Positions 3,563 through 54,130 of a DNA stretch of 64,000 nucleotides are shown here, piece by piece. Below the pieces are notes generated by a model. That model made no database searches, was not told where the DNA came from, and worked only from the letters and a program-made list of their open reading frames with translations. This DNA comes from Naegleria gruberi (taxonomy: Eukaryota), in assembly GCA_000004985.1 (NCBI GenBank), contig GG738854.1. One strand, 5' to 3'. Each line of letters starts with the position of its first letter. Position 1 is the stretch's first letter. A program made the translations under genes and the position numbers.

Positions 3563-3693
3563 AACTTTGCAAGAAAATTAAAGCCCTTCACCTTATTTTG
3601 GTATTCTAATACATTGTTAATTGTTACAAATTAATGTTTATTATCAATAGGTTTCACTGATAATGATGTTATTTCGTTAGGTAATTAGGAGTG

Positions 3694-6111
3694 TTATTTG
3701 TTTCTTTTGAATTTGCTTTTGAGGATTGCAACCAAGCCTTGCTTTTCGCCCATGTCAAAAACAAGGGAAGAAGCAGAGCCAGAAATTGATTTTTCTTTTT
3801 GCCACTTATCAGTTGCCTGGGTGAGACAATCCTTAATAGTTGCCCATTCAGATCTGGTAAAATCCATAGTAGAGATTATATCAAAGGCTGTCTTTCCACT
3901 ATTATCCTTGATAGAGAGGAAGTTATAGAGTGTGAGAGGTGTCTTGACAACAATATCATTTCCTGGATGGCATAAAAAATTTTGTTCTAGCCAGGTCATT
4001 AACCATTCGAAACCATTAAGCCAAGGTAAAAAGTCATCAGGTTTTTTAGACATCATTCTTACAGCAAAGTCCATGCTGATGTGGAAAATGGTCTTTCCTT
4101 CTTTATCTCTATCAAAAACCATTGAAGAAACAAACTTGAACTTGTCAGGATTCTTCAAAGTATACTCGAAAAGGAATTTACAAATTGTTTTGACGCAATC
4201 CACATCATTGAAACAAACTGCTTGCATCAATACATTGTATCCAAATGAGTTTTTCATTAAGAGAGCCTTTTCAAATAGCTCTGTACCGAAGAGTGTTGTT
4301 CCATTACTGAGTATATCTTTAAGGAAGAGATAATATTTGCCACTTGTATTCTTGTTAATGACAACCAGATTACTCATTCTCCTCTCTACTCTTGTCTTTT
4401 TCTCGGTGAGATCCAATAAATTAGATGATGAATTTGAACTGTGAGTGTTAATAGTTCTATAATCTCTGAGGCAAGCGAATAGAGCATGCTCCTCTCTTTG
4501 ATTCTTTTTGAGTAAGAGTCTTGGCATGTACTTGCAAATGTATTGACTCATATCCATATTGCAATCTCTGAATGCTCCATGAAGTAATGACTCTCCCAAA
4601 ATACCTACACCAACTGTAATATCCAACTTGGCTCCAAATAATTGAAGCATATCACAAAGTTCGTAATCTTTACGCTTCAATGCCAATACTATTGGAAGAT
4701 TTCCGTATTGATCTGGAATAAAGTTCAATTGCTTTTCTTGAACTGATGGTTGACTACATAAAAATACACAAGCATCATGAGCCTTCTCACCCAAATCATT
4801 TCCACCAACACCATAGAATAATGGTGTCATTTCTTGTTTGTCCTGTAAGACCCACAATTTAGCTTGTCTTTGTTTACACTTTTTAGAGTGTTCTGCTGTT
4901 TCACCTGTTGGACTATCCTTGCTGCAATCGTGGTCACAACAACATTCCAAAAGCCATTGCAAAATATCAACATGATTATACTTGGCAGCTAAATGCACAA
5001 CAGAAGCGTTTTGGAAATTAGGATAGGTCAAGTCACAAACAAAGTCAGCAACATGAGGTCCAACAATTCTCTCCCTAGCAATTCTTCTAATAGGACTGAA
5101 AGAATGTTGGGAGTTTCCTGAAAGTGTTGCCTCAATAGTTGGTGGACTTTTAGTTTTTTCATCTTGAGCAGGATCCATTTTGGTTGGAGTTGAAAACACT
5201 GTTTCCTTTTGTGGTATTGGAGGTGGAGAAGGCTTTCCAAAGATGGAAAGTTTTTTTCTCGAAGGTGATTGCTCGACAGGTTTGTTACTAGATGTTGAAA
5301 TGTCACATGAATATGTAGTGTTTAGGAAACTTGTGTCAGTGATGATCGCAGACATTCTTTCCTCCTTCATTCTAGTTGGTGCCTTTGGTCTTGAAAACTT
5401 GCCCAAAGCAGCTGCTGCTCCAAACGAACTTGAAGATTGGTGTGTTCCTCGAGTAGCTTGTTTGTTTCTGTTAGCATTTGTTGTTTCATAGGTTTCTTTG
5501 TTTTGAAGATATGTCAGTAAATCCATTGTTACACGTTTATCAGTGCTGGCGGCTGACTTGAAATCATCATCCATATCAATCTTATTCTTTTCATTATTAC
5601 TCGAGGTTGTTGTTGTTTCTATAGGGTTTGTATTTTCATTAGGGGTGGTGGTGGTTGATGATGTGGAAGGTTGAGTTGGTGGAAGTTTAGGTAAAATTTT
5701 GTGTGAATATCTTGGTATTCTTACTTGTTGCGATATTCTCGACAGGTAATCATCAATATAATCCTCTACTCTACATTGTACTCTTTGTGAAAACAGAGCA
5801 CTGGTTGAGTGTCGAACCAAATCTCCTCCAACGCTCGACAGAGCTGGCTCAATTTCGAATAATTGCAATAAATCACTTCTCTTTTGCAATCTTTCTTCAT
5901 GTGGCAGCAATTCTCCAGTACTAACTGGAGTAGCACATGAAAAGGCCTTTCTATCACTGTGATAATTGTTGTGGTTGTTTGAAGATTGTCCGATGTGATT
6001 CATGGCAGACGAAAGGCAATTACTTGTTGATGACGAAACAAAATTCATCAGGGAGAGATTGATAGGTTCTACCACAAGAGAATCAGTAGAATCAGAAGCT
6101 GTGGATGCCAT
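3694..6111 (-). CDS. Ankyrin-repeat protein (805 aa, S/T-rich N-terminus)
   Basis: Single 2418-nt ORF. The C-terminal half contains ankyrin-like units (VVHLAAKYNHVDILQWLLE, LPIVLALKRKDYELCDMLQLFGAKLD, GYNVLMQAVCFNDVDCVKTI). Confidence 0.5.
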   Translation of the reverse strand: MASTASDSTDSLVVEPINLSLMNFVSSSTSNCLSSAMNHIGQSSNNHNNYHSDRKAFSCATPVSTGELLPHEERLQKRSDLLQLFEIEPALSSVGGDLVRHSTSALFSQRVQCRVEDYIDDYLSRISQQVRIPRYSHKILPKLPPTQPSTSSTTTTPNENTNPIETTTTSSNNEKNKIDMDDDFKSAASTDKRVTMDLLTYLQNKETYETTNANRNKQATRGTHQSSSSFGAAAALGKFSRPKAPTRMKEERMSAIITDTSFLNTTYSCDISTSSNKPVEQSPSRKKLSIFGKPSPPPIPQKETVFSTPTKMDPAQDEKTKSPPTIEATLSGNSQHSFSPIRRIARERIVGPHVADFVCDLTYPNFQNASVVHLAAKYNHVDILQWLLECCCDHDCSKDSPTGETAEHSKKCKQRQAKLWVLQDKQEMTPLFYGVGGNDLGEKAHDACVFLCSQPSVQEKQLNFIPDQYGNLPIVLALKRKDYELCDMLQLFGAKLDITVGVGILGESLLHGAFRDCNMDMSQYICKYMPRLLLKKNQREEHALFACLRDYRTINTHSSNSSSNLLDLTEKKTRVERRMSNLVVINKNTSGKYYLFLKDILSNGTTLFGTELFEKALLMKNSFGYNVLMQAVCFNDVDCVKTICKFLFEYTLKNPDKFKFVSSMVFDRDKEGKTIFHISMDFAVRMMSKKPDDFLPWLNGFEWLMTWLEQNFLCHPGNDIVVKTPLTLYNFLSIKDNSGKTAFDIISTMDFTRSEWATIKDCLTQATDKWQKEKSISGSASSLVFDMGEKQGLVAILKSKFKRNK

Positions 6112-7474: not shown

Positions 7475-8507
7475 TTATTTGAAAACTTGAACCTTTCTCT
7501 TGTAAACATTAGTGACATAGAACTCTCCAGTTGTAAAATCAATTCCCATCTCCAATCCTTCTCCTCCATCAAGTTCAAACTTGTGATCAGAATCAGCGTT
7601 TTCATTCTTGAAAAGAGTCAAACAAGATCCATCCAATTTAGTAGATTCAAGACCTTCATCTCCAATATAATAGAGAAGTTGACCGCTTGGATCCAATGTA
7701 AGTCTACTTGCAGCTCCTGGACTTACTCTTGAAACTCTGCTAATGACATTTCCTGTCTTGTCAGTTTTAATAATTGACTTGGAAGAGGTCAGTAACAAAT
7801 TGTTATCAAAGTCTGTGGTAATTCCAAACAAGTATTCAAATGGAGGCACAAACATATTTTGACCACAAACATCTTCTCTCAATGTAGCTGTAACCTTACC
7901 ACAACACAACTCCATCCTTTTGAATGGTATAAATGCTTCCATCATGTCTATCAATGCACATATCACGAACTCTTGATTGCTTATTAATACTCCAAAAGAT
8001 TTTCTTTCCATCTCTTGACACTTTGGTAATGTCAAAATATGCACCTCTGTCAATACAATAGACAAGTGCATTGTCATTTTGATCGTAACACATTTTGAAA
8101 GGTGCATCTTCTTGTGGCTCTTTGAATGAAGCTTTGACTTTCTTGGTGGCCAAGTCAAATTCCACAATGATTAAATCGTTGGCCACAAACAAGGAGCCAT
8201 GCTTCAAGTCAATTGCGCTACATTTTGGTTTGGACAAACTTGGCAAATCAACATGTTGCTTTAAACTTGGTAATAATGAGGCATTGGACAGAATTTTAGA
8301 AACCTTTCCAGTTTCGGCATGAGATTTAGTCTTGTTCGATGTATTGTGTAAATGCAAGTGGGCACCACAATAGTTTTGGTTGCATTCAGAGCAGTGATGA
8401 GTTGCGAGAACTTGTTCATCTTCAGCAAGGCATTTGTTGCAGAGCTTGTCTTGGGTCATGGTTGTGATGGTTGTATTTTTTTGAAGTGTGTATTTTGGAT
8501 GTGTCAA
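7475..8507 (-). CDS. B-box zinc finger plus NHL-like beta-propeller protein (RING-less TRIM-NHL-like); reading frame breaks near 7896-7900
   Basis: The N-terminus has a B-box Cys/His pattern (CNKCLAEDEQVLATHHCSECNQNYCGAHLHLH). The rest aligns along its whole length to the paralog at 8781-9959, but only if the frame changes after ...TIQKDGV, so two overlapping ORFs (8507-7896 and 8167-7475) cover it. This is either a real frameshift or an indel error. Confidence 0.45.
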
Positions 8508-8780: not shown

Positions 8781-9959
8781 ATGGTCAATTGCGATAAGTG
8801 TTTTAAAGATGACGAAGAAACAGTGCCAGCTACACATAACTGCAAACAATGCAACATGAACTTTTGTGATTCTCATACAACACTACATAATTCTGCTAAC
8901 AAGACTAAATCCCACACGCCAGATGTCGTCCAGTTGGAAGTAGCTGTAAAGAATTGTGAAAAATGTTTGAAAGACGAACAAGAAACTGTTCCAGCAACAC
9001 ATTTTTGCAAATCATGCAATGCAAGCTTGTGCCAGGCTCACTTAACTTTGCACAATACATCAAACAAGACAAAGTCTCATGTCAATGACATTATTCAATT
9101 AACTAGCTCACCTCTCACTTCGTTTATTCCATTCAGTGGAGCTTTTGAACATATTGCAACTCTTGGCGAACAAGAACCAGTCAATTTTCAGTTCTCCAGA
9201 GTTGCTGCCATCACTATCGATCCAGTCAACCGTTCCTTATTCGTCTCTGATAAGAATACCTTCTTGGAATTTGATTTGAAAACCAAAAAGCTGAAAAACC
9301 AATTCAAAGAACCCCAAAACAGAGAAAACAAAATGTTAAATTATGATCCAAAAGATGATGCCCTAATTTACATGATTCACAGATGTAGCTCAGCACTTAT
9401 TGTAAAAACTTCCAGAGATGGAAAGATGATTTATTGGGAAACCGCTGTGGGAGTTGTTAAAGGAATTACTGTTGATAGAAAGGATGGAACTGTTTATGTG
9501 CTACAAAAGAATGGAGTTGACTTTTTGTCACCTACCAATGGGGCAATTGTAAAATCTTTAAGAAATGACATTAATGGAAAGAGCATTTTTGAAATGCAGA
9601 ATATTGATAGTATTGGAATTAATCATGATAATGATTTGGTGCTTATTGATCAGTATAATATTATAGTTTCGAATAAGAATGGAAAAATTTTAAAGAAACA
9701 TACCAAGCACTCTACTGTTTTGCATGTAAGACCACAATTTGAACCAGTTACCAATAGAATATTTTGTGTTTCGTCTGGAATCGTTTTTATGAATGAAGAC
9801 GGCACCTGTGTCACTAACTTTGAAAATGAGAAATCTCAAAAGTATAGATTTAACTTGTTTTATCCTGGTGAGGGCTTGGATATTGCATTGGATACAGAAA
9901 GTGGTGAATTATATGCTGGTGTCCACAGTGATTCAGAATTTGTAATTGTTTTCAAATAA
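8781..9959 (+). CDS. Protein with two tandem B-box zinc fingers plus an NHL-like beta-propeller (392 aa, intronless)
   Basis: Two copies of the CxxC...H...C...C..H..LH pattern (CDKCFKDDEETVPATHNCKQCNMNFCDSHTTLH and CEKCLKDEQETVPATHFCKSCNASLCQAHLTLH) are followed by propeller-like repeats. These repeats match those at 7475-8507 and 15021-17375. Confidence 0.6.
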   Translation: MVNCDKCFKDDEETVPATHNCKQCNMNFCDSHTTLHNSANKTKSHTPDVVQLEVAVKNCEKCLKDEQETVPATHFCKSCNASLCQAHLTLHNTSNKTKSHVNDIIQLTSSPLTSFIPFSGAFEHIATLGEQEPVNFQFSRVAAITIDPVNRSLFVSDKNTFLEFDLKTKKLKNQFKEPQNRENKMLNYDPKDDALIYMIHRCSSALIVKTSRDGKMIYWETAVGVVKGITVDRKDGTVYVLQKNGVDFLSPTNGAIVKSLRNDINGKSIFEMQNIDSIGINHDNDLVLIDQYNIIVSNKNGKILKKHTKHSTVLHVRPQFEPVTNRIFCVSSGIVFMNEDGTCVTNFENEKSQKYRFNLFYPGEGLDIALDTESGELYAGVHSDSEFVIVFK

Positions 9960-11171: not shown

Positions 11172-14100
11172 TTGTTGTTGGTATTTAGCCACCCATTCAA
11201 AAAAAACAACGACAAACACTCGGTGTTCCATCATCACACATCTTTTGTTGAATTATTTGGGGATGATGATAGTGCCACTATGGTTTTGAAACGACATCAT
11301 GATGAAGAACAGAATTATCTTAATCAGGATGGGAAGAAATTAAAGATATTATTGTTGTGGACAATGATAATGATGATTTGTTGTTATTCATCAATGTGTT
11401 TTAATATATTTGTGAATGGTACTTCCGAAGAATTATCCATACTTCCAATAATTGCATCATCATCTTCACCACCAATAAGAAGAATATCAACAAAACCAAC
11501 ATTAGCATTGGATCAAACCATTAGACAATTAGTGAATGAAATTATACATGAAGACCTCACCTATTCATCTTCCTTATCATCACCATCCACAAGAACATCA
11601 TTATCATCATCATCTCTATTAGGAACATCATCAGATGAAGAAAGTGTTACTGTCTATGTGAATCCACAGAATGGTTCTGATAGTATTGGATGTTCATCGG
11701 ATGCCATTACTTCATGTAAGACAATTCCATTCTCTTTGGATGATTTAAAAACAAATAGGAAAATTGTGAATACGAAACAGATTCTTCTCTATTTGCAGGC
11801 ATCTATTGAAGAGAAAGATGTTGGAGATGCTATTAATTGTAAAGGGTTTAATTTTACTGGAATTAACTTTTCTGAGGTTAAAATTTCAGCAAATAGTCCA
11901 GTAATTGTTAATTGTAATTATGTTTCGAATTGGAGTTCTAGTTTTAGATTTAATTTGACAATGAGTAATATAGTGTGGAGGAATTTTAATATTCCAATAG
12001 TTTCCACAATGGACTCAATTGTCATTGAAAATTCAGTGATTCAGAATGTAACCATTTCCATGTCAAAATTTCTCAATATTCGAAACTGTAGAGTTACCAG
12101 TGATGGAGCTGATTTTAGTATTCTTCATATGAATGATATTGAAAATGTGATAATAAGCCAGACGTCATTTGAGAAGAAAGCTATTGGATATTCCATTTCT
12201 AGAATTTCCTCAAATATTTATATTGAAAATATTAGTGTGGATAATAGTTTATTGATCTTTTATGGATTTGTTAGCATGGTAGATGGTTCTTCAGTGAAAA
12301 ATTCTCTCACTTTAGTGGATAGCAGATTCACAGCAAGTACAGTGAGGATTATTGAATTTAGTGAAATCTTTTTCAGGAATAATACTCATTCAGGAAATAT
12401 TCTACCTACAAACATTCCAAATATTGTCTCGTCATACTTTTCAGAGTATAGCTATTCTGGATTTTCTGTGAGCTGCCTCACTGTGAGAAGTGATTTGAGG
12501 GTGAGGAATGTAACAGTGGAGAATATGAAATTATATGGAGGAGCACTGATTGAAGGCCCAGGTCTGTATGCTCGATTCTTTGATTCCATTTTCAAAAATA
12601 ATAAGAATAACCTTGGAGGAGGAGCTATTCATGTGAGGACTGTTTTCAGAGTTTTCATTGAAAATGTCCAATTCCTTTCTAATAGTGTAGATTCTTCTAA
12701 TGGAAAATTAGGTTTGGATTACATTGGAGGTGGAGCCATTTATCAATACAGAAGTGTCCTCATCACCAGTGGCTGCTACTTTGACAGTAACAATGGTGGT
12801 ATATTTGGTGGAGCCATCTTTAGTTTCTTACCACTTGAATACTTTTCATTGGATGATAATTTCGTTTCCAATACTGCTGGTTATGGAGGAGGTTATGCCA
12901 GTATGGATACCATTTCCATTTCTCAAATTGCATTTACAGATACCTCCATGATAGGTAATAATTGTTCAAATTCTGGAGGTGCCATTTTCACAATGAATTC
13001 TGAAATTACATTCAGTTATGGATCTTCAGATTTCAAATCCATTTCTGGAAATAATGCAAATCTTTTGGGAGGTGGTATTTTCTTTATTAATTCAAAGCCA
13101 TCATTTGCATATAGAAGAATATCCAAAATATTTGTGAATAATTATTGTAAGGCATCTCCTTATTTATCAGATTATTCTTCATTTGCAACTGAAATTCAAA
13201 CAACTCCATCTGATTTTACCCTTAAACCTGGTACTGCGGATATTTTACTTTTTGATTTATATGACATGTTTGGAAATCAAGTTCCTTTCACGTCTAATTT
13301 AGAGATTGAAATGTCTTCAGATGATGCAATCTATCCAGAGATTAGTTCAATGAACTCACTTGCAACTGGTTTCCAAAAAAGATTTACTTTTACAGTTTAT
13401 TTGAAAACAAACCGATTTCTAACATTTAACACAACTGTGAATATGGTTATTGGTTTGACTAATATTCCATACGAAAAGAATTTGAATTTAAAGGTGAAAT
13501 TACAGAGTTGTTCGAGTGCAGAATCTCTAGTAGTCAACCTTTTCAAGAGTTCTACATCTAGGGTTTATTATGAATGTGGACCAAATGCAGCCTTGGTAGC
13601 TTCCTTAGTTGTCCTGGCATCTTGCTGTTGTGGAGCGTGTTGCCTTATTTTCTGTGTCTTTATTACTTATAAATTTGTAAAGATGAGAGGTCAGGTTGCA
13701 CTTTTAGCAAAGAAGGAAAAAGCTGAGGAAGAATTGACTAAAAAACTGATGGATCTCCAAACACTTTATAATAGTGAATTGGAAAATAAGCACTCATACA
13801 AGGAATGGCTTATTAAATTGGATGATGTGGAATTGATTAAGAAAGTTGGTGAGGGAGGAGGTGGAATTGTCTATTTGGCTAATTGGAAACGAGTTCCAGT
13901 TGCTTTGAAAACTATCAAGATTGAAGATGAGGATTTGGATTCTAATGATTTTGAACATGAGGCATCACTTTTGAGCTCAATTAGACATCCACATATTGTA
14001 ACATTTTATGGTAAGTTTACAATAATTTGGACCCATATCAAACAATTTTATTAGGAGTTTGTTTATCTAATTCTGCCAAATTCATGGTTACTGAATTTAT

Positions 14101-14981
14101 GCATGGAGGAAGTTTGGATACCTTTATTTATGGCTTGAAAAATCATAAAAAGAAGATTTCGTTCGTGCAAAAGATTAGAATACTTTCGAATATTGCTTCT
14201 GGAATGTCCTATCTCCATGACCGTTGCATCATGCACAGAGATTTGAAACCTGGAAATATTTTACTTTCGAATGAATTAACAGCAAAGATTACAGACTTTG
14301 GCTTGTCAAAACTCTATACTACGGATAGTGGAAGCATGACCAAGACTTGTACAGTTGGAACTTTACTATGTAAGTATTAGTTATTTGTTTAAATTGATTT
14401 GTTAATTTCCAATGTTAAAGATATGGCACCGGTATGTGAAATATTCTTAGATTTTTGTTAATATGTAATTAAATGATAATAGGAAGTTTTATTAGGAACT
14501 AAATATGATGAAAAGTGTGATATTTACAGTTTTTCTATTATAATGTGGCAAGGTGAGTATAAAATGGAATTTGTGAGAATATTTAATATGATTTCAACAA
14601 GTCTTATTTGAGGAATCGTCACTATTCAATTCATCCTACGTGAATGATCCTAAATACAGCTTAATTATGACAGAAACTCAAAAATTGGCTTTCAAGAATT
14701 TGAATGAGGCCTACATGGTTGTTCCAAAGATGGTAACTGAAGGTTTGAGACTTCCGTTACCTTCCTTGCCATTAAGTGATAGCTATGTGGATTATTGGAT
14801 ATATGCAGATTGTGGAGATAAAAAAGTGGGTGCCACTCTTAAGGATAGTTATGATTTCGTACTGGCAGGAATGTTTAAATTGATTGAGGAATGTTGGAAT
14901 GCAGAGGTAGCTCAAAGACCACCATTCACTCGTATAGTGGATAAATTAGTGGAATTTGAAAAAACTTTACAAAGTAAATAA
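11172..14981 (+). CDS. Receptor-like protein kinase with a Pmp-like beta-helix ectodomain; exons 11172-14010, 14055-14369, 14421-14431, 14483-14552, 14602-14981 (~1204 aa)
   Basis: The ectodomain carries repeated GGAI/GGGI and FxxN motifs (GGGAIHV, GGGAIYQY, GGAIFSF, SGGAIFTMNS, GGGIFFINS). A transmembrane segment follows (LVASLVVLASCCCGACCLIFCVFITY). Kinase subdomains are assembled across four small introns: GEGGGGIVYLA, VALK, HRDLKPGNILL, DFGLSK, GTLLYMAPEVL, DIYSFSIIMW and CW...RPPF. All splice phases are consistent. Confidence 0.65.
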
Positions 14982-15020: not shown

Positions 15021-17375
15021 TTATTGAGCCTTATAGATAAATACTTGATCATAACTTCCAACGAAGAGTTCACCTGTTTCATCTAAAATATCTACTGCTT
15101 GAATTGGAATATCATTAACTAAAATCTTATCATAACCTTCCAAATTGACCAAACGAACACTCTTGTGATAATCATTCAACAAAATATTTCCAGTAGCTCT
15201 ATCAAGTCTCATTGAATCTGTATGTGCTCCAGCATTGTGTGTCTTTAAGATTCTTCCTTTAGAATTAATGAGATAGATTGTTGAACTATCTCCAATGTAG
15301 AATTGATCTTCAACGCCAGAATACAAGACAGAGCAGAAGCAATAATAACGAGATTTTCCTTGGGAATCTTCTGAAATGACTTTTCCACTCTGACCATCCT
15401 TTGTACACATTTGGATAATTTGAGTTCCACAACCTTCCGTCAAGCACATAATTGAAGAATCTAATTGGTTGACTGCAATGTAACGTGGAATGAATTTAAA
15501 TCCTTTTTGTTCTCTGTTATGATAATCAACTTTCCACATGATATCTCCTTCATAACTGAATTTGTAAAATGCATCAGTAGCCACAACGATTGTATCCTCA
15601 TTGTAATCTATATCAATATCATAAATACTTTGACAATCTCCAACTGGAACCTTAATTGTCTTGATGTGTCTCTTTGTTGTCAAATCAAAGATGTGAACTT
15701 TCAATCTTTCAGCCACAAGCAAATGCTTTTTCTTTTGATGAACAACCATGGCAATCAATCCTGAAAATTTGAACTCACCACAATCTTCTTCATCACCCAA
15801 TATAGCTAATCTCTTCATATTTCTATTTGGAGTGACCTTTGGTGGTTGAGTAACTGGTAATGGTCTAATTCCCATTTGAGAAACCAAGTGAGCTTCACCA
15901 GATTTGTAAATTACAATCTTATTGTGGAATGAGACGTATAATTCACCCAATTGATCAGAAACTTCACAACAACTTGTGCCACCTTCTTCAGCAAAACTCT
16001 TTGAATAACCTTCCATATTAACAAACTTGATGCATTTGTGATAATCACTCAAAATGAGACAACCAGTGTAATGGTCAACTCTCAATGAATCAGGAGTAGC
16101 TTCCAATTGATGAGTTTTCAAAATTTTACCAGTTGAGTCAATCAAGTAAATTGTTGAACTATCTCCAATATAAAATTGATCTCCATAACCAGAATAACAA
16201 ATAGAATGGAAGCAATAATAACGAGATTTTCCTTGAGAATCTTCTGAAATGACCTTTCCACCTTTTCCATCCCTTGTCATGATTTGCAATACTTGAGTTC
16301 CACTTCCTTCAGTTGCACACAACACAGACGAATCAGCTTGGTTGACTGCAATATAACGTGGCACAAATTTCATTCCCTTTTCTTCCATATTTTGTGAATT
16401 GAGTTTCATTATCAAATCTCCTTCAAAATTAAGCTTGAAAAGCGAATAATCTGCAATGACATAAAAAGTGTCATCATTGTAATCAATGTCAATATCAGTT
16501 GGATAACTGCCACTTCCCCATAAATGGTTACAATTCAAAGTTTTCAAATTTCTCTTGGTGTTCAAATCGAAAATGTGAATATATTTCCAATCAGCAACGA
16601 AAAGCCAATTTCTCTTTTGATGGACAACCATTGCATAGACATTTTGAAATTTGAATTCGCCACAATCTTCTTCTTCGCCCAAAGTTGCAATTTTTTGATA
16701 GGTTAAATTACGTGGAGTTGGTTTTTGTGGAATACTTGTTGGTAAATGTTGTGGAATTTGAGTTTGTGGTTGACCAAATGGTTGTTGTTGAGGTGGAGGA
16801 ACACCAGTTTGAGGTGGAAATTGTCCATAAGGAATTTGAGTTTGTGGTTGTCCATATGGTTGTGGTTGACCTGGAATGCCAGTTTGAGGTGAATATTGTG
16901 GTTGACCATAAGGTTGATTTACGTATTGTGGAGGATATTGTTGAGGAGGAACATTTGGTTGACCATAATATCCTTGTTGAGGTGGATATTGTTGATTAGT
17001 TTGTGGTTGACCAAATGGTTGAATTTGTGGTGAATATTGACCAACAACATTTGGTTGACCAGTTGGAGGAGGAATTTGAGAAGTACCAATTGGTTGTTGA
17101 CCTACTTGTGGTGAATATTGTGGTTGTCCATAATATCCTTGTGGAGGATATTGTGGTTGTCCATATGGTTGTGCATAACCTCCATAATAACCTCCTTGTG
17201 GTTGTTGTTGTTGTGGAGGATATCCATAACCTTGTTGTGGTGGATATTGTGGTTGACCATATGGTTGTTGTTGTGGATGGGGTGGGTATTGGTAATAGCC
17301 TTGTTGTTGTTGTTGTGGAGGTTGGTGTTGACCAGTAGTTGGTTGAGAGTTTGTTGGTGGTGTGTTAATTGACAT
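15021..17375 (-). CDS. Prion-like P/Q/Y-rich N-terminus plus two tandem NHL-like propeller domains (784 aa)
   Basis: Single ORF. The first ~230 aa are degenerate GQPQYPPQ-type repeats. Two ~270-aa units follow, each starting LG(E/D)EEDCGEFKF and ending ...VSEDSQGKSRYYCF...DQFYIGDSSTIYLI. Both units are homologous to the B-box paralog propellers. Confidence 0.55.
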   Translation of the reverse strand: MSINTPPTNSQPTTGQHQPPQQQQQGYYQYPPHPQQQPYGQPQYPPQQGYGYPPQQQQPQGGYYGGYAQPYGQPQYPPQGYYGQPQYSPQVGQQPIGTSQIPPPTGQPNVVGQYSPQIQPFGQPQTNQQYPPQQGYYGQPNVPPQQYPPQYVNQPYGQPQYSPQTGIPGQPQPYGQPQTQIPYGQFPPQTGVPPPQQQPFGQPQTQIPQHLPTSIPQKPTPRNLTYQKIATLGEEEDCGEFKFQNVYAMVVHQKRNWLFVADWKYIHIFDLNTKRNLKTLNCNHLWGSGSYPTDIDIDYNDDTFYVIADYSLFKLNFEGDLIMKLNSQNMEEKGMKFVPRYIAVNQADSSVLCATEGSGTQVLQIMTRDGKGGKVISEDSQGKSRYYCFHSICYSGYGDQFYIGDSSTIYLIDSTGKILKTHQLEATPDSLRVDHYTGCLILSDYHKCIKFVNMEGYSKSFAEEGGTSCCEVSDQLGELYVSFHNKIVIYKSGEAHLVSQMGIRPLPVTQPPKVTPNRNMKRLAILGDEEDCGEFKFSGLIAMVVHQKKKHLLVAERLKVHIFDLTTKRHIKTIKVPVGDCQSIYDIDIDYNEDTIVVATDAFYKFSYEGDIMWKVDYHNREQKGFKFIPRYIAVNQLDSSIMCLTEGCGTQIIQMCTKDGQSGKVISEDSQGKSRYYCFCSVLYSGVEDQFYIGDSSTIYLINSKGRILKTHNAGAHTDSMRLDRATGNILLNDYHKSVRLVNLEGYDKILVNDIPIQAVDILDETGELFVGSYDQVFIYKAQ
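15024..16700 (-). repeat. Internal tandem duplication of a ~270-aa propeller-like domain (copy 1 ~16700-15900, copy 2 ~15830-15024)
   Basis: The two halves align residue by residue. Examples are LGEEEDCGEFKFQNVYAMVVHQKRNWLFVADWKYIHIFDLNTKRNLKT against LGDEEDCGEFKFSGLIAMVVHQKKKHLLVAERLKVHIFDLTTKRHIKT, and KFVPRYIAVNQADSSVLCATEGSGTQVLQI against KFIPRYIAVNQLDSSIMCLTEGCGTQIIQM. Confidence 0.55.
16701..17372 (-). repeat. Low-complexity coding repeat (P/Q/Y/G-rich, degenerate octapeptide GQPQYPPQ units)
   Basis: Direct inspection of the translation. The antisense frame gives artefactual V/E-rich ORFs (16685-17338 +). Confidence 0.6.
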
Positions 17376-20645: not shown

Positions 20646-23600
20646 TTATTTCTTGTTCTTTCTTTTAACAAAAATGCAAACGACAACAATTAAAGCAATA
20701 ATTGTACCAATGACACACAATCCACCAACACTACCAACAATGGCAGCAATCAATACAGTATTATCTTGTAGAATGGCTGCATCTTCCTTGTTTGGTTGAC
20801 TTGTTGCTTTTTTGTAATTTTGGTCAATTACTGAAAAGGATGTCAAATGATTTGTGTTACATTTGATTGACAATGTTACGGTGACATTTCCATCGGCAAG
20901 TTGCTGAGTAATGATTTGATTTTGAATTTCAGTTTCCAATCCATCTGATTTCCATTCTTTTGAATTTTCATCCAAGTAAACACATGAAATATTCAATTTT
21001 TCTATATTTGGTAGAGTTAATGTTACATTTTCAAAGGAGAATGAAATTGGTTGTTGCAAATTTTGGACTGTAATCTTTTCATTTGAATTTGATTTCAATA
21101 AAACTAATGAAACAACTTGAGAAATTACAGCAGTTTCGGATTTCTTACTTTCAGATAGAGAAGAAACTACTTGAACTGAATCATTCTTCAGAGAAATTTC
21201 AGAACTTTGAAGATATTGAGAAATGATTGATGGAAGTGAAATTGAAATGGATGGAGTTGACGAAAATTGAATAGTCTTTGAATCTAATTGAGTGATATTC
21301 GAAACTATGCTTGTTTGAGATTCAGTTGTGTTGAAAGATGAAGATGAGCAAACAGTTGAAGTTGGATAAAGAGTACAATAATCAGCAATAGAACAATCCA
21401 ATCCTGAATATCCAGTCAAGCAAGAGCAACTATTCAATGCTTGACAAGTTCCCTTACCAGAACAAACTTTCGAATCATCAAACGAAACTCCATAACATGT
21501 TGTAATGTTACACACCAATCCACCCGATGGTAATTGATTCATAATATATCCAACTGGACAATAAGGAGTCAACATTCTAATTCTCATATTCATGGTATCA
21601 GCAAATACAATTCTGCCATCTTTCAAAGTTGATAATCCTGTTGGATTGTTCAACAATGAATTCTTTGCATTGGAAGAATCTCCATTGAAACCTGCTTGGA
21701 AAGGTTTTCCTGCAATTAAGGTGATATTTCCAATCAAGTCAACCTTTCGAATAACATTATTATTGGTATCTGCAATAATCACTTCTCCATTTGGTAAATA
21801 AGCAACTGAGCTTGGGTTATTGAGATAGGATTGAGTTGCCAATTCATTTTCTGGCATTGAAACAATACCTATATTAGTTCCCTTTCCTGCAATAGTTGTC
21901 ACTTTGCCTTTTCCAGAAATATCTGTCTTTCTAATTTTGTTATTTCCTGAATCGGTAAATAGAATTTGATTATTAAGAATTCTAATATCATTAACAAGAT
22001 TAATATTTGTCTTATTGGCAAAATTATCTCCATTATCAGTGTAATAATAAGCACCAACCACTGAATCAATTAATCCACTTGAAAATGAAACCTTTCGAAT
22101 TCTATAATTTCCCTTATCGGAAAGGTATAGATCTGTATCAGTAAGGGCCATAGACGAAACAGTTGACAGCTCAGAATTGACAGCTAAACCTCCATCTCCA
22201 ATTCCACCAGCTATCGTAACAACCTGTCCAGACGAAACCTTTCTAATCAAATACACATCGACAAAATAAACTTCACCATTCCAATAAACTACACATTGAG
22301 GAACGGCAATACTTGTGGACAAAGCAGGTCCATCACCAGTTGTGGCCATATAGGACACTAGTCCAGCAATAGTCGAAACCATATTCGAACCATAAATCAT
22401 TCGCTTAATGCCATGAGTAGACGGACTGTCAAAGTACAAATCTCCGTTCGGAGCGAATGAAATTGCAGAAACTCCGCCAATATTTGTTGCATTGGCTAAA
22501 CTTGTGGCAGAAAGTGATTGACCACCTCCAATTACTGTATAGACCTTTCCATCTTGTGAATTAACTCTTCTAATGAGATATTTTCCAGTACTACCACCAA
22601 TGTCAACAAAATACAATTCTAAACTAATTGGATGAATAGCTAAACCTCTTGGATAAACTGAGGTGGAAGTGGCATTGAATCCATCTGCAGTGAAGGCGGA
22701 AGATCCTGTTCCAATAACTGTGTAGATTTTACCTGTGCTGGCATCAATCTTTCTAATTCTGTAATTCTGGTTTTCTTTTTAAAAATTATATTAGAAATAG
22801 TTTTGAATAAACTTACCTGAATAGAAAATATCACCATTACTTGCATTAACGCAAATACCAGATGGATAATTCATATTTGTGGAGAGCGCAGACAATCCCT
22901 CTCCATTATATGTGGTATTTCCTGTTCCAGCAATTGTTGTAATATTTCCAGAGACGAAACTCAACTTTCTAATTCGATTGTTGGAAGATTCTGTAATTAA
23001 CAAATCACCATTTGGTGTGAAAGCTAGAAAACCTGGTCCATTTAACTTGGCTTTCAATGCTGGTCCATCTACATATCCTGCTGAACCAGTTCCTGCTACA
23101 GTGGAGATGACACCTTTCGAATCAATCTTTCGAATAGTGTGACTGCCCTTATCACTGATGAAAACTTCACCACTTGTTGAGATTGCTATTCCTTCTGGGC
23201 TTGACAATCTAGCTGCAGTAGCTGGATATCCATCTCCAGAGCTATAAGCTTGTGAACCAGCAAAAGATGAAATAAGCTTATTAGAATCGGTTAGTTTCTT
23301 AATTCCAATAGTGGTACCAATGTAAATATCACTTGAGGATTCTGATTGAGTAACTGAAATGGGAGTATAAAGCGAAGTTAAATTTCCCAATTTTCCATCA
23401 GTGTCCAATTCGATAATTCCAGTTCCAGCCACACGGTCAACCAATGAATTTCCATAATTAGCAACTGAATTAAGTTTTAAAACAACTCCAACTGAACTAT
23501 CCACTACCAACAATTCATCTCTTTTAGAATTATAAAATGTAGATACTGGATTCAAAAGTGAAATATTCGAAACATTTCCTGAAAGTACTTGATATCTTAT

Positions 23601-24967
23601 TGAGCCATCTCCTGCAACTGTATTAATATTTCCAAGTACCAAGTCGATTTTTCTAATTCTATAGTCAGCAAAATCTGAAACATATAAACTATTTCCATAA
23701 ATAGCTAATCCAGATGGATAGGTAAAACGAGCATTGAGAGCACTACCTCCATCTCCGCTGAATCCAACAACTCCTGCATTGTTGGCAATGACAGTTTTAA
23801 CACCATTAGAAATTTTGATAACTTGACCTTTTGTCAAGCTGAGAGCAAATAAATTACCATTCGAATCAAAAACAATCGCTCCAGGAGAAACAATAGAGAC
23901 GTAGGTCAATAATGTTCCATTACTTGCCACGTAACGAATCACATTATTATTTATATCTTAACAATATTAGAAATAGTTTCGAATAAAACTTACCAGAGAA
24001 GTACATCTCACCTTTTAAATATTAGAAATACTGTCAGTGTGTAGAATAAACTTACCTGTTACTGGATGAAAAGCAATTCCATATGCAGTTTTAATACTAG
24101 CAGTGACAGCTGGCGTGCCATCTGGACTATTTCCAAGTTGTCCATTTCCAACAACATTATAAAAGGTATCATTCACAATCTTTCTAATATTATTGTTATC
24201 ACAAATGAAAATTTCATCTTTTGGCGAAACTGCAATACACACAGGATAGGATAATCTAGCCGAAAGTGCAGGAACGCCACTTGTCGTCAAAGATCCACCT
24301 CCTGCTATTGTAATCATATTGAACTCATTAATAGTTGAGTTGAAAAAAACCTTCTTCACTCTATTCATCAATCCACACTACCAGATAAGCTTCAATCACC
24401 CAAGCAAAAACTGGTGTACCGCCACTGGTTTCAGTCTGTGTTAACTTTTCCGCCACTTACTTCGGATACATCCCCACATCAGTCCGCCATAGGCAATAAG
24501 CAAGAATCGCTACACTAGTTTTTAATAGCTTACCTGGTAGTGGTAATGAAAACTTCACCTTTCGAATTGATTGCTACTCCATATGGATTAGTCAGAGAAT
24601 CATTGGCGAAAGCCAAACTATCTGAACCAACACCTGCTTGGTAATTTGGTGCTCCAGCAAAATAATGTGAAATTCCACTATTCGAATCCAAGTATCTCAC
24701 TTGATGATTACCCGATTCTGCATAATAAATATTACCGTTTTTCTTGTCAACTGCCAATCCATAAGGTCTATACATTCCAACATTGGTTGCCTTCATGCCA
24801 TCTCCAATTTGTCCTCCCAATATAGTTTCAAGAGAATACTCAACTGGTCTACTTTTTTGTGCATGAACTAGAAATAAATGAGCGATTAGTTGGAGCGATA
24901 ATACAAGTGCAAGTGCACGAAATAACATATTGGAAGTAGTGGTTGTTGACTTTCGTCTTGTAAACAT
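20646..24967 (-). CDS. NHL-repeat receptor-like type I membrane protein (~1341 aa); exons 24967-24534, 24360-24056, 24011-23994 (micro-exon), 23956-22817, 22774-20646
   Basis: A signal peptide (MLFRALALVLSLQLIAHLFLVHA) is followed by about 12 NHL blades. Each blade has the hydrophobic-x-D-x-x-N-x-x-IR(K) signature, for example YYAESGNHQVRYL, CDNNNIRKI, SDFADYRIRKI, SDKGSHTIRKI, ESSNNRIRKL, DTNNNVIRKV and DTMNMRIRML. An EGF-like module follows (CSGKGTCQALNSCSCLTGYSGLDCS), then a Ser/Thr-rich stalk, one transmembrane helix (LIAAIVGSVGGLCVIGTIIALIVVVCIFV) and a KRKNKK tail. The exon/intron model keeps phase through four GT-AG introns of 173, 44, 37 and 42 bp. Confidence 0.65.
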
Positions 24968-25662
24968 TTTTTTTTCTTCGCTACTAGTAGGAAACGATAA
25001 CAACTAAACTTGGTGTGTGTGAAATTGAGAGATATGTTCCAGTACAGAAAAAGTGTTGGGTTGGAATGGGAAACCATGTCCTGGAAAAGAAGTATCAACA
25101 CTATGCGTTGAAACACGGTAAGATATTGCAAACTCAATGAAGAAGGGCTTTTTTATCTAACGTCAGCAAAAAGTCATAACTCAATTGTTAGTAATCTTAC
25201 TAACATTTTTTTCGTAGCCGTAGTACTTGGTAGTATATATTACAATGCTTCATGAATGCCTTTTGCAATAATATTTCCATCAAGAAATTAGTTAAGGATA
25301 TGTAGAGATAGTAATGGACTGTACACTTTTGTAATTAGAAAGGAAGATTCATCAACAATATTTTACCAACAGCCAGTAAGCACAATACAACGTGGCGAAG
25401 TCAAAGGACGTGATGAAAAAAACAAAAGAAAAAGAAGGCGGGAAAAAAATCCTTGCAACCTCACTTCTTACCATCATCACGCTACATCAAAGCTGGTAAA
25501 GTATCGGAGTGAATGAACAATATGCAGGCTTCTGTTTAGTTTCTTGCCAGCCATGTTCTTCATCCTTTGCTTCCTGTTGAAAGTGGTATTATCAACAAGT
25601 TGTCAAATTCACCTTTCAACCTTTGAATTTTGTTTTTTCCGTTCAGATTTCAATTAAAAAAA
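24968..25662. promoter_or_regulatory. Divergent intergenic region between the NHL receptor-like gene and NHL-BTB copy A; 25048-25662 is repeated at 26886-27496
   Basis: The two flanking genes are head-to-head. The upstream ~250 bp is also conserved (~80% identity, inverted) at 53843-54130, upstream of copy C. Confidence 0.35.
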
Positions 25663-26835
25663 TGTCTTCACTTGCTACCAGTGCACAACTGAATTCTCCT
25701 TTTGGTGTTTTTGTTTCATCAAATAATGAAGTTTATATTGCTGATTATGGTAATCAAAGAATTAGAAAAATATTAAAAAATGGAAATATTGTAACAATTG
25801 CTGGAAATGGAACTGCTGGATTCAGAGGTGATAATGGTCCTGCAACAAATGCACAACTGTATAATCCTTATAGCGTTTTTGTTTCATCAAATAATGAAGT
25901 TTATATTGCTGATTTTAGTAATCATAGAATTAGAAAAATATTAGAAAATGGAAAAATTGTAACAATTGCTGGAAATGGAACTGGTGGATTCAGTGGTGAT
26001 AATGGTCCTGCAACAAATGCACAACTGAATAATCCTTATAGCGTTTTTGTTTCATCAAATAATGAAGTTTATATTGTTGATTATAATAATCATAGAATTA
26101 GAAAAATATTAAAAAATGGAAATATTGTAACAATTGCTGGAAATGGAACTGGTGGATTCAGTGGTGATAATGGTCCTGCAACAAATGCACAACTGAATAA
26201 TCCTATGGGTGTTTTTGTTTCATCAAATAATGAAGTTTATATTGCTGATTATTATAATCATAGAATTAGAAAAATATTAGAAAATGGAAATATTGTAACA
26301 ATTGCTGGAAATGGAACTGCTGGATTCAGTGGTGATTCACCTTTTGATATTAGAACGTATCCTCATATTGGAAATAAGTTATTAACTGGAAATGGTAACT
26401 TACATTCTAAAATAGAATTTCATAATTTGAAAAAACATTCAAGAGATGAATTATTTGGATTGCCAATTTATGGATTCATTCCCCTCATTGAAAAAACTTC
26501 ACCAAAATTTAGTAACATTTTGAAGAATGAAAAGATACTTTGTTTGATGAGTTCATCACAACAAGAAATTATTCAAAAATTAATTGACTCTTTGATATAC
26601 GATAAGAATAAGGTAAAGTTTAACAAAGAAGAAATGTTGGATGTTTTATTCATTTTGGGTTTATTTAAGAATGGTGAATTTATTGATTTGAAAAGATCAT
26701 TAACAAGTGAATTTGTGAACTCACTCACATTAGAAAATCTTACTTTCAAATGGGAAACAATTGAAAATTTACTCAAAATTTGCAAGGAGGAATTCAATGT
26801 TCAAAATTACATTCTTGATCATTTGAATAACTATG
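25048..26835 (+). repeat. Tandem duplication unit 1 (promoter plus NHL-BTB gene)
   Basis: 25048-25662 is ~99% identical to 26886-27496, differing only by indels, e.g. ggaatggg against ggatggg. The coding parts are also near-identical. Confidence 0.7.
25663..26835 (+). CDS. NHL-repeat plus BTB/POZ family protein, copy A; the 3' end is lost in the assembly gap
   Basis: Start MSSLATSAQLN. Four near-identical 57-aa NHL units (NAQLNNPYSVFVSSNNEVYIADYNNHRIRKILENGNIVTIAGNGTGGFSGDNGPAT) are followed by a linker (KKHSRDELFGLPIYG...). The ORF runs directly into the N run. By comparison with copies B and C the missing part should hold the BTB domain. Confidence 0.6.
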
Positions 26836-26885
26836 NNNNNNNNNNNNNNNNNNNNNNNNNNNNNNNNNNNNNNNNNNNNNNNNNN
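26836..26885. other. Assembly gap (50 N) inside a tandem duplication
   Basis: A literal run of n characters. It is flanked by the truncated copy A and the re-start of the duplicated upstream sequence. Confidence 0.95.
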
Positions 26886-29538
26886 AAAGTGTTGGGTTGG
26901 ATGGGAAACCATGTCCTGGAAAAGAAGTATCAACACTATGCGTTGAAACACGGTAAGATATTGCAAACTCAATGAAGAAGGGCTTTTTTATCTAACGTCA
27001 GCAAAAAGTCATAACTCAATTGTTAGTAATCTTACTAACATTTTTTTCGTAGCCGTAGTACTTGGTAGTATATATTACAATGCTTCATGAATGCCTTTTG
27101 CAATAATATTTCCATCAAGAAATTAGTTAAGGATATGTAGAGATAGTAATGGACTGTACACTTTTGTAATTAGAAAGGAAGATTCATCAACAATATTTTA
27201 CCAACAGCCAGTAAGCACAATACAACGTGGCGAAGTCAAAGGACGTGATGAAAAAAACAAAAGAAAAAGAAGGCGGGAAAAAAATCCTTGCAACCTCACT
27301 TCTTACCATCATCACGCTACATCAAAGCTGGTAAAGTATCGGAGTGAATGAACAATATGCAGGCTTCTGTTTAGTTTCTTGCCAGCCATGTTCTTCATCC
27401 TTTGCTTCCTGTTGAAAGTGGTATTATCAACAAGTTGTCAAATTCACCTTTCAACCTTTGAATTTTGTTTTTTCCGTTCAGATTTCAATTAAAAAAATGT
27501 CTTCACTTGCTACCAGTGCACAACTGAATTCTCCTTTTGGTGTTTTTGTTTCATCAAATAATGAAGTTTATATTGCTGATCAAAGTAATAAAGAATTAGA
27601 AAAATATTAGAAAATGGAAATATTGTAACAATTGCTGGAAATGGAACTGCTGGATTCAGAGGTGATAATGGTCCTGCAACAAATGCACAACTGTATAATC
27701 CTTATAGCGTTTTTGTTTCATCAAATAATGAAGTTTATATTGTTGATTATAATAATCATAGAATTAGAAAAATATTAAAAAATGGAAATATTGTAACAAT
27801 TGCTGGAAATGGAACTGGTGGATTCAGTGGTGATAATGGTCCTGCAACAAATGCACAACTGAATAATCCTATGGGTGTTTTTGTTTCATCAAATAATGAA
27901 GTTTATATTGCTGATTATTATAATCATAGAATTAGAAAAATATTAGAAAATGGAAAAATTGTAACAATTGCTGGAAATGGAACTGGTGGATTCAGTGGTG
28001 ATTCACCTTGGTCCTGCAACAAATGCTCAACTGAATAATCCTTATAGCGTTTTTGTTTCATCAAATAATGAAGTTTATATTGTTGATTATAATAATCATA
28101 GAATTAGAAAAATATTAGAAAATGGAAATATTGTAACAATTGCTGGAAATGGAACTGGTGGATTCAGTGGTGATAATGGTCCTGCAACAAATGCACAACT
28201 GAATAATCCTATGGGTGTTTTTGTTTCATCAAATAATGAAGTTTATATTGCTGATTATTATAATCATAGAATTAGAAAAATATTAGAAAATGGAAATATT
28301 GTAACAATTGCTGGAAATGGAACTGCTGGATTCAGTGGTGATTCACCTTTTGATATTAGAACGTATCCTCATATTGGAAATAAGTTATTAACTGGAAATG
28401 GTAACTTACATTCTAAAATAGAATTTCATAATTGAAAAAACATTCAAGAGATGAATTATTTGGATTGCCAATTTATGGATTCATTCCCCTCATTGAAAAA
28501 ACTTCACCAAAATTTAGTAACATTTTGAAGAATGAAAAGATACTTTGTTTGATGAGTTCATCACAACAAGAAATTATTCAAAAATTAATTGACTCTTTGA
28601 TATACGATAAGAATAAGGTAAAGTTTAACAAAGAAGAAATGTTGGATGTTTTATTCATTTTGGGTTTATTTAAGAATGGTGAATTTATTGATTTGAAAAG
28701 ATCATTAACAAGTGAATTTGTGAACTCACTCACATTAGAAAATCTTACTTTCAAATGGGAAACAATTGAAAATTTACTCAAAATTTGCAAGGAGGAATTC
28801 AATGTTCAAAATTACATTCTTGATCATTTGAATAACTATTGTATTGAATATGCTGTTGTTCAAATGAGGACTAAAGAAGGAAACACTGTATTACCGACTC
28901 TTCCAATAATTATGAGAAATGGTGTTGCCATTTTTTCAAAAATGATCATTACTAAACCAACTGCAATTAATATTGAGGAAACAATTGAGATTAAACCACA
29001 AACAATTGAATCATTATATAATGACAAGAAAACAAGTGATGTGAAAATCAAAATGGGACAAAACAAATACTTATATTGTCACAAAACTGTATTGAGTTCA
29101 TCAAGTACATTGTTTAATGCATTATTTGACAGTGGATCTTGTTTCAGTGATTTAAGTGATGATGGAATATTCACACCTGACGAATCAGAAGATTTAGAAT
29201 TATTGGAAATTGTGATCAAACATTGTTATGGAATTTCAATTGACAAAATTGATGCTGTTAAAATTATTGGATTACTTGATATGGCAATGAAACATGAAAT
29301 TCAATATCTGGTCGATTATTGCAAGAATAACTTTAATCTATCCATTGATAATTACTTTACAATACTTGAAGCATGTGAAAAATATCTTGATTTACAACCA
29401 TTTGAGCAATTTATGAGAGATATTATCAAATTTAGCATTACCAACAGAAAACAACTTTTCAAGGATCGCAATAGAATTTCCAACTTACCTGAAAAAGTTT
29501 GGCAAGAAATGGTCTTCAAGTTTTCACAGGACTTTTGA
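26886..29538 (+). repeat. Tandem duplication unit 2 (promoter plus NHL-BTB gene copy B)
   Basis: As for unit 1. Confidence 0.7.
27497..29538 (+). pseudogene. NHL-repeat plus BTB/POZ protein, copy B; at least three frame disruptions (apparent pseudogene or assembly/indel errors), with the BTB-containing part 28432-29538 intact
   Basis: A 1-nt deletion plus divergence at ~27583-27612 leads to a TAG. An internal junction at ~28000-28012 fuses the end-of-array sequence (ggtgattcacctt) to a mid-repeat sequence (ggtcctgcaacaaatgc). At ~28427 the T run is one T shorter (cataattgaaaaaac) than copy A (cataatttgaaaaaac), shifting the frame in front of the BTB ORF. The BTB motif itself is clear: DVKIKMGQNKYLYCHKTVLSSSSTLFNALFDSG...LELLEIVIKHCYG...IIGLLDMAMKHEIQYLVDYCKNNF. 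Confidence 0.5.
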
Positions 29539-53842: not shown

Positions 53843-54130
53843 TTTTTTAATTGTAATCCGAACGGAAACAACAAAATTCAAAGGATGAAAGGTGAATTTG
53901 TTGATACTTCATTCAACAGGAAGCAAAGGATGAGCAATAGACCCTAAGAAGAAAGCAACCAACATATGATGAGGAACATGGCAAGAAACTGAAAATATTG
54001 CCTGAATATTGGTCATTCACTCCGATACTTTACCTGACTTCAAAGCAACAGAGGAAATGCTATGATGAAGCGTATTACTCAAGATGAAGAATACACTGTA
54101 AATCCTACTTTGCTGAGAGTGGTGAAGCAT
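53843..54130. promoter_or_regulatory. Upstream region of copy C, homologous (inverted, ~80%) to the upstream region of copies A and B
   Basis: The reverse complement begins ggtaaagtatcggagtgaatga..., as at 25496-25517, and shares conserved blocks up to the ATG. Confidence 0.3.

Follow-up and report, generated by a model that had tools for sequence, protein, structure and literature searches.

A Naegleria gruberi gene for a protein with a glutamine- and proline-rich head and two predicted NHL-type propellers

Introduction

Brat and LIN-41, which belong to the metazoan TRIM-NHL group, are RNA-binding NHL proteins (PMC4015489, PMC5908797). A different kind of described system is the proline-rich head of annexin A7, which is 180 amino acids (aa) long with about 24% proline, and which phase separates and later fibrillises in vitro; the proline-rich domains of annexin A11 and ALIX also show phase separation and fibrils in vitro (PMC10634317). 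The motifs recognized by ALG-2 have been defined as type-1 PXYPX4YP and type-2 PXPGF (PMC3397542). Here we describe a gene of Naegleria gruberi whose product can be compared with both kinds of system. The gene lies at 15021..17375 on the minus strand of a stretch of 64,000 nucleotides (nt) from contig GG738854.1 (assembly GCA_000004985.1), which we call the window. Its 784-aa product has a low-complexity head followed by two propeller units.

We favour the reading, and consider it fairly probable, that this protein is a non-enzymatic adaptor and an offshoot of a B-box-NHL family, in which an uncharged head rich in Gln, Pro, Gly and Tyr is combined with two NHL propellers on a Pro-rich linker. 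The fold of the propellers, their duplication, their relatives and the head are presented below, and alternative explanations are weighed afterwards.

The gene and its product

One unbroken ATG-to-TAA open reading frame (ORF) occupies 15021..17375 (minus strand) and forms a complete single-exon coding sequence (CDS) of 784 codons plus TAA. The stop-to-stop frame has 802 codons, with 18 extra codons upstream of the ATG. The ATG is preceded by an A-rich context, and no additional coding ORF was found upstream of it. The product is identical at 784 of 784 positions to a database entry of N. gruberi NEG-M (P0139; XP_002680293.1 / EFC47549.1 / D2V6C9 / NAEGRDRAFT_47031) labelled "predicted protein", and the public gene model of D2V6C9 is the same single exon. 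The gene is real, known as a database sequence and uncharacterised. A literature search for its identifiers returned no paper that mentions them, and a search for Naegleria with NHL or B-box returned nothing relevant. Neither a signal peptide nor a transmembrane segment was found in the protein. The maximum 19-residue Kyte-Doolittle mean is 0.74, indicating that there is no hydrophobic segment, and the protein is soluble. The same locus is present in another N. gruberi strain on a metagenome contig (L001, ENA ERZ929261) with 98.6% nucleotide identity.

Two predicted six-bladed propellers of NHL type

Following the head, the protein contains two tandem units that we predict to be six-bladed beta-propellers of NHL type. 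Propeller 1 spans residues 227-491 (15903..16697, minus strand), as judged from its 55% identity to unit 2, the NHL profile and hhalign, and propeller 2 spans residues 520-783 (15027..15818, minus strand). According to the pairwise alignment, a Pro-rich linker of about 28 residues (492-519; 15819..15902, minus strand) lies between them. The motif DCGEFKF occurs exactly twice in the protein, at residues 237-243 of unit 1 (16647..16667, minus strand) and residues 531-537 of unit 2 (15765..15785, minus strand), and the opening of each unit reads LG(E/D)EEDCGEFKF. By the strand positions of the model described below, the motif of unit 1 is located in the loop that connects the closing (velcro) strand with blade 1. 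Read from the sequence, it is the counterpart of the NHL repeat start G-x-F...P. The segment GEFKF-x3-AMVVHQ-x4-LLVAE-x3-VHIFD can be read as a degenerate NHL repeat of the form G-x-F..P.gvavd..g.l.VaD..n.rvqvFd. A first-pass annotation of this DNA had described two tandem propeller units, each opening with DCGEFKF, and the two occurrences of the motif and the end-to-end alignment of the units bear this out.

Profile comparisons connect the units with NHL proteins. The best Pfam match of the 784-aa protein was Mala_s_1-like, with 26.5 bits under a cut-off of 27.5, and further weak matches were to MRJP, IFT80 and the LRRK2 propeller. When the two-unit profile was run exhaustively with HMMER against 1.84 billion representatives, only six proteins were found. 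One of the six is a B-box protein of N. lovaniensis (P0004, E 1.8e-6), which itself reaches 73.6 bits with the Pfam NHL model (cut-off 20). When unit 2, unit 1 and the relative P0002 were compared by hhalign with the Pfam-positive NHL proteins P0008, P0009 and P0004, they matched over 233 columns with 97.4% probability (E 1.2e-11). The NHL profile matches both units at about 3e-9; on unit 1 the match covers residues ~240-419 (258-437 of the 802-codon frame) with a domain E of 3.5e-9. The family profile also matches the structures of Thin, TRIM3, TRIM2, TRIM71, Brat and the NHLRC2 NHL domain, plus teneurin and PAL. The top PDB profile matches were 2ymu and WRAP-T. We do not take them to speak for WD40, as one profile stretch of ~70 residues (~172-241) was matched repeatedly in highly repetitive or designed WD40 proteins.

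An AlphaFold2 model of unit 2, calculated with an 11-row alignment, has a predicted local distance difference test score (pLDDT) of 90.3 and a predicted TM-score (pTM) of 0.89. The model contains 24 beta-strands, corresponding to six blades of four strands, and its first strand precedes blade 1 and closes blade 6. AlphaFold with the single sequence of unit 2 gave a pLDDT of 34, and the model was confident only with the 11-sequence alignment, which one paralog (7475-8459, see below) entered as its two separate frames. In a Foldseek search with the unit 2 model, the best TM-score was 0.77, to Mei-P26, and the ranking by E-value was dominated by seven-bladed G-beta chains with poorer TM-scores. 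The nearest structural neighbours of the model are NHL domains, with Brat 1q7f and TRIM71 6fpt (Pfam PF01436) as reference structures. These independent lines converge, and the prediction that the units are NHL-type six-bladed propellers is well supported. The earlier description of an NHL-like duplicated propeller is thereby backed by the profile-profile match and, for unit 2, by the model.

Duplication of the propeller block

The two units (residues 222-505, 284 aa, and residues 515-784, 270 aa) can be aligned end to end with 55% aa identity and 66% nucleotide identity, with one indel-rich loop. The last ~12 residues of the linker (PPKVTPNRN) repeat the segment before unit 1 (PQKPTPRN), and therefore the duplicated block took in part of the pre-propeller linker. 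By the Nei-Gojobori method, the rates of synonymous (dS) and non-synonymous (dN) substitution between the units are ~1.29 and ~0.35, with a dN/dS of ~0.27. Synonymous sites are nearly saturated, so that the duplication is old and not recent, and the units align along their whole length because of purifying selection on both copies. The whole-length alignment noted in the first-pass annotation was thus correct, and the recent origin that it had read from this alignment was not. Between the two strains, the propellers differ by 11 synonymous and 4 non-synonymous changes, the latter conservative.

Several loops are nearly identical in both units, namely LG-EEDCGEFKF, EQKGxKFxPR, TEGxGTQ, SEDSQGKSRYYCF, DSS and YHK. 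When assigned from strand order, these are the d-a and b-c loops of blades 1 and 3-5. The loop GKVISEDSQGKSRYYCF, at residues ~655-680 (15500-15560; unit 1 equivalent 16380-16440), is identical in both units and is kept in P0002. Within the AlphaFold model, it is the region of lowest confidence (pLDDT 67-80). This loop is subfamily-specific and is not found in the B-box paralogs, and we regard it as a candidate for a putative binding element.

Relatives and origin of the architecture

Two paralogs are located 5-9 kb from the gene in the window. The first, at 8781..9959 (plus strand), was recognized by tblastn, translation, hhalign and hmmsearch, and it encodes two B-box-like zinc fingers and one propeller. 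It is intact, with tandem fingers of the pattern C-x2-C…H-x-C-x2-C…C-x2-H…H and a propeller that opens with ATLGEQEPVNFQF. Its hhalign comparison with the two units gave 83.5% probability (E 8e-6), and in Pfam it has a weak ANCHR-like B-box match and no NHL match. It divergently adjoins the second paralog (7475..8459, minus strand), which has one B-box and one propeller and whose frame is broken by 1 nt near 7900. A family-profile hmmsearch matches two adjacent frames here, and inspection of the sequence places the break between …GVVLW* in one frame and CGKVTATL… in the next. An intron at the break was rejected, because the only GT..AG candidate is 12 nt long and too short. The second paralog is therefore a pseudogene or an assembly error.

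Proteins with B-boxes and an NHL-like propeller are also present in other Naegleria species, namely P0004 (PYSW02000009.1) and C9374_006337 of N. lovaniensis and FDP41_004851 of N. fowleri. P0006 of N. lovaniensis and P0007 of N. fowleri (two B-boxes) are, like P0004, among the nearest relatives with B-boxes. The 784-aa protein shares with the Naegleria B-box-NHL proteins the six-bladed propeller, the LG-E-x-F-F opening, the FDL-TKK end of blade 1 and the closing GELxV...(I/V)(Y/F)K, and the N. gruberi genes of this kind cluster in the same region as the gene itself. The identity is only 21-28%, however, and the architectures differ. The B-box-NHL proteins have one or two N-terminal B-boxes and a single propeller, whereas the 784-aa protein lacks zinc fingers and combines a Q/P/G/Y head with two propellers. 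A Pfam scan of the 784-aa protein gave no zinc-finger matches, so that neither RING nor B-box was found and B-boxes are confined to the paralogs. Since the relatives have B-boxes and a single propeller, the ancestral architecture is one or more B-boxes with one NHL-like propeller. By these sequence comparisons, the gene is an offshoot of this family, in which the B-boxes were replaced by the low-complexity head and the propeller block was tandemly duplicated.

The nearest relative outside N. gruberi is P0002 (JGI 3300002220, locus L002), with 33-39% identity. Like the 784-aa protein, it has an EDxGEFxF opening, an IxSDSxGxxR loop and a low-complexity N-terminus instead of B-boxes. Unlike the 784-aa protein, it contains just one propeller, and the low-complexity region is rich in N/S and not in P/Q/Y. 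The P/Q/Y composition and the duplication are therefore specific to the N. gruberi lineage. In the homolog on L002, the frame is broken at about 3796, between the EDKGEFEF motif and the first blade. What looked like a second homologous copy on L002 was rejected, as the extra matches belong to L003 and L004. Also on this locus (2583-2792 and 3320-4518), a small upstream ORF carries a CCHC zinc-knuckle-like motif (CYNCDDEGHVFKYC). No closer orthologue turned up for N. fowleri, N. lovaniensis or Willaertia magna in libraries that hold proteins of these species.

The low-complexity head

The N-terminal head comprises residues 1-221 (16713..17375, minus strand) and was analysed by composition, motif counts, a shuffle test and codon choice. 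It consists of 29% Q, 25% P, 12% G and 12% Y, which together make up 78% of the residues. There is 1 Lys and no Arg, Asp or Glu in the 221 residues, along with 3 His and no Cys. The head contains 28 aromatic residues; Y and F account for 12.7% and Q and N for 32%. Among the sequences of the 64-kb window, this head is the only QPGY-rich stretch.

The repeat of the head has the degenerate form (P)[YF]GQPQ(Y[PS]PQ). In comparison with 5000 composition-preserving shuffles, [YF]GQPQ occurs 7 times against 0.07 expected, and QY[PS]PQ 7 times against 0.15 expected. The head is a genuine degenerate repeat at the peptide level. The first-pass annotation had proposed such a P/Q/Y repeat head of about 230 aa; its repeats are real, with counts far above those of the shuffles, and its length is closer to 221 aa. 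With TRF, no tandem array was found in the DNA of the head, just two 12-nt doublets and two short (TTG)n = (CAA)n runs. Because there is no array at the DNA level, the repeat is old and maintained at the protein level.

The head is presumably intrinsically disordered. Its Q, G and Y content and its missing charge are compatible with a prion-like profile, and the 25% Pro runs the other way. The spacing of the aromatic residues is not more even than random, with a coefficient of variation of 0.84 against 0.87 in shuffles. From composition, we put forward as a hypothesis that the head may be prion-like or condensate-forming. The likeness to the annexin A7 N-terminus that had been proposed earlier holds in gross composition, and by analogy with the annexin A7 head, this head might be able to phase separate.

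Proposed role and alternative explanations

The likeliest role that we infer for the protein is that of a scaffold which binds bivalently and whose disordered head is multivalent. As a non-enzymatic adaptor, the protein would present a ligand-binding face on each propeller. Since the loops are nearly unchanged in both units, the propellers probably bind the same or similar partners, and binding would then be bivalent. The charge-free Pro/Gln-rich head, studded with Tyr, may provide many weak contacts for self-association and possibly for condensate formation. Alternatively, it may dock to proline-recognition modules.

Several observations weigh against this picture. In hmmscan at E <= 1, the 784-aa protein has no match to Pfam NHL, and no PDB sequence was matched by the two-unit profile alone or by the protein itself. 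The alignment used for AlphaFold included bona fide NHL proteins and could pull the model towards NHL. The model covers unit 2 only, and the fold of unit 1 follows from the 55% identity. Conservation between the units is not focused on the inferred top face, being 55% in the top loops, 65% in the bottom loops and 51% in the strands. Lastly, the L001 strain has a 1-nt deletion at ~875 of the contig (CDS position 963), where GATTTGATAATG became GATTT-ATAATG, and the gene is split in propeller 1. The deletion is located outside any homopolymer and may reflect either a true null allele or a fault in the assembly; if real, it makes the gene dispensable.

Among the alternatives, an RNA-binding regulator of the Brat / LIN-41 / Mei-P26 type survives best, and we consider it unlikely. 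In this case, the top faces of the propellers would bind mRNA motifs and the head would enter ribonucleoprotein granules, and the NHL fold itself would fit. The units are acidic, however, with isoelectric points of 5.6 and 5.9. Their top-face loops contain 9 K/R against 15 D/E per unit, with top and bottom assigned from strand order and not from coordinates, which is unlike the electropositive faces of Brat and LIN-41. The identity to domains of the Brat / LIN-41 / Mei-P26 type is only 14-16%. The acidity of both units makes RNA a somewhat less likely ligand than a protein.

A second alternative, which we judge rather improbable, takes the head as an annexin-A7/ALIX-like dock for penta-EF-hand (ALG-2) or WW-domain (Nedd4-type) proteins, so that the protein would be a Ca2+-regulated or ubiquitin-pathway client. 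The composition comes near that of the annexin A7 head, with ~25% Pro, many Tyr and no charge to speak of (PMC10634317), and PPQY and PQYPPQQGYGYP each occur once in the head, at residues 148 and 42. The window also holds cullin, F-box and BTB genes, but at a distance of 11-31 kb from the gene, and nothing connects them with it. Neither PXYPX4YP nor PXPGF has a match in the head. The single match to the relaxed n=6 ALG-2 variant, at residues 42-53, arises in 15% of shuffles (P = 0.15), and PPxY is rarer than expected by chance (1 against 1.55). The protein also lacks the RING or B-box that could have pointed to the ubiquitin pathway. The conserved repeat, [YF]GQPQ / QY[PS]PQ, is neither an ALG-2 nor a PPxY motif. 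The ALG-2-binding N-terminus suggested in the first-pass annotation therefore loses its ground, as the defined motifs are absent and the lone relaxed match is not significant.

About as improbable is a bolder proposal, in which the protein would be a condensate scaffold that evolved independently in a deeply branching eukaryote (Heterolobosea) without canonical TRIM-NHL proteins. The head would drive reversible assembly, perhaps regulated by Tyr phosphorylation as in ALIX, and the propellers would recruit RNA or protein clients bivalently. Such a protein would be an analogue of the metazoan TRIM-NHL granule regulators built without RING or B-box.

The remaining alternatives have very little probability in our view. 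The propellers might be six-bladed hydrolase or lyase enzymes such as PAL, SMP-30/gluconolactonase, paraoxonase or strictosidine synthase, and PAL is indeed among the structures matched by the family profile. The family-invariant residues F49, D50, D76, K91, G96, G147, G159, G193, G233, E255 and K268 (unit-2 numbering) are scaffold positions, however. They correspond to the blade-end FD, Gly turns and the final K, and not to a set of His, Asp, Glu and Asn at the entrances of the inner strands. The homology also leads to B-box-NHL proteins, which are not enzymes.

Equally far-fetched is the notion that the P/Q-rich part is non-protein, being an untranslated region or an intron, or that the locus is a decaying pseudogene. 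CAA/CCA low complexity stays open in several frames on both strands, so that ORF length by itself is weak evidence, and the deletion in propeller 1 of the L001 strain would suit a pseudogene. Against this, codon 1 is the sole in-frame Met before propeller 1. M249, which follows it, lies inside blade 1, and because M249 comes after the closing strand and DCGEFKF, a complete propeller 1 requires translation of the head. The codon choice of the head (CAA 64:0 CAG, CCA > CCT) is the same as in the propeller part, and the public model has the same single exon. Comparison of the two strains gives four indels in the head, each 3 nt long and in frame, together with replacements that keep to the composition class (P/S, T/P, F/Y). 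The indels fall in CAA/CCA micro-repeats, where slippage yields triplets regardless of coding, and they are therefore only supportive and not decisive. A decaying pseudogene is also at odds with the 11 synonymous against 4 non-synonymous differences in the propellers.

That the head forms a genuine yeast-type prion domain, with self-propagating amyloid, is just as hard to credit: the head is Q-rich (29%), rich in Tyr and Gly, uncharged and built of oligopeptide repeats, but its 25% Pro is evenly spread, and the N-terminus of the nearest relative, P0002/L002, is N/S-rich, so that the P/Q/Y composition is not conserved there. The oligopeptide repeats are reminiscent of the Sup35 repeat PQGGYQQYN. 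A Pro content of 25% is far above that of yeast prion domains, and by prion-propensity scales it disfavours long beta-strands. The proline-rich domains of annexin A7 and ALIX do fibrillise in vitro (PMC10634317), which is a point in favour of this alternative.

Genomic neighbourhood

The window is rich in NHL-type ORFs, with about ten matches to the NHL profile. Apart from the genes described above, NHL-repeat ORFs are found at 20649-22778 (minus), 22794-23957 (minus), 24533-25003 (minus), 25581-26972 (plus), 27592-28432 (plus), 51639-53165 (minus) and 53060-53908 (minus). Three of these seven (within 20646-28432 and 51639-53908) have strong Pfam NHL/TEN_NHL matches. An expanded family of NHL genes seems to reside in this region of the N. 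gruberi genome.

A multi-exon receptor-like kinase gene at 11172-14981 (plus strand) faces the 784-aa gene in convergent orientation. The extracellular region of its product is large and carries GGAI-type (Pmp / pectin-lyase-like) repeats; the product also has a single transmembrane segment and a kinase domain of TKL type, the last interrupted by short introns. Ubiquitin-ligase components are encoded at 28432-29538 (BTB protein), 44339-46309 (cullin) and 46409-47662 (F-box protein). The cullin ORF is identical at 656 of 656 positions to N. gruberi XP_002680175.1, whose first exon is outside the ORF. Nothing ties these three genes, at their distance of 11-31 kb, to the 784-aa gene or to the NHL genes.

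Comparison with known systems

A "predicted protein" of N. gruberi that was blank in Pfam now has a predicted fold and a family. Within a local B-box-NHL-like cluster, one copy exchanged the zinc fingers for a low-complexity head and now has two propellers, which amounts to domain replacement with internal duplication. If the head drives assembly, the protein, with its two modules, would offer a simple system in which to study how scaffolds and clients are organised in an early-branching eukaryote; otherwise, it would be an ordinary member, specific to its lineage, of a very large superfamily of propellers. No orthologue was detected in N. fowleri, which is a pathogen, and there is therefore no obvious medical angle.

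In the head, the 784-aa protein resembles the disordered domains of annexin A7, annexin A11 and ALIX, with a similar length (180-220 aa), a similar Pro content (~24-25%), many Tyr and hardly any charge on both sides. The head differs from these domains in being Q-rich (29%), in lacking the defined ALG-2 motifs and in having no sequence homology to them. It is also fused to propellers, whereas the annexin proline-rich domain is fused to the annexin core. Closer in composition is the head of Dictyostelium annexin C1, which has GYPPQQ repeats.

In the propellers, the comparison is with the metazoan TRIM-NHL proteins (Brat, TRIM71/LIN-41, TRIM2/3, Mei-P26 and TRIM32/Thin). In contrast to these, the 784-aa protein has no RING or B-box, and the only sequence N-terminal to its propellers is the 25%-Pro head, presumably without a coiled coil of the TRIM type. 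The metazoan proteins have one basic NHL propeller, whereas the 784-aa protein has two that are acidic and share 14-16% identity with them. The 784-aa protein is not a TRIM protein. It combines ordinary building blocks in an unusual way, and within a known propeller family it represents an architectural variant specific to its lineage.

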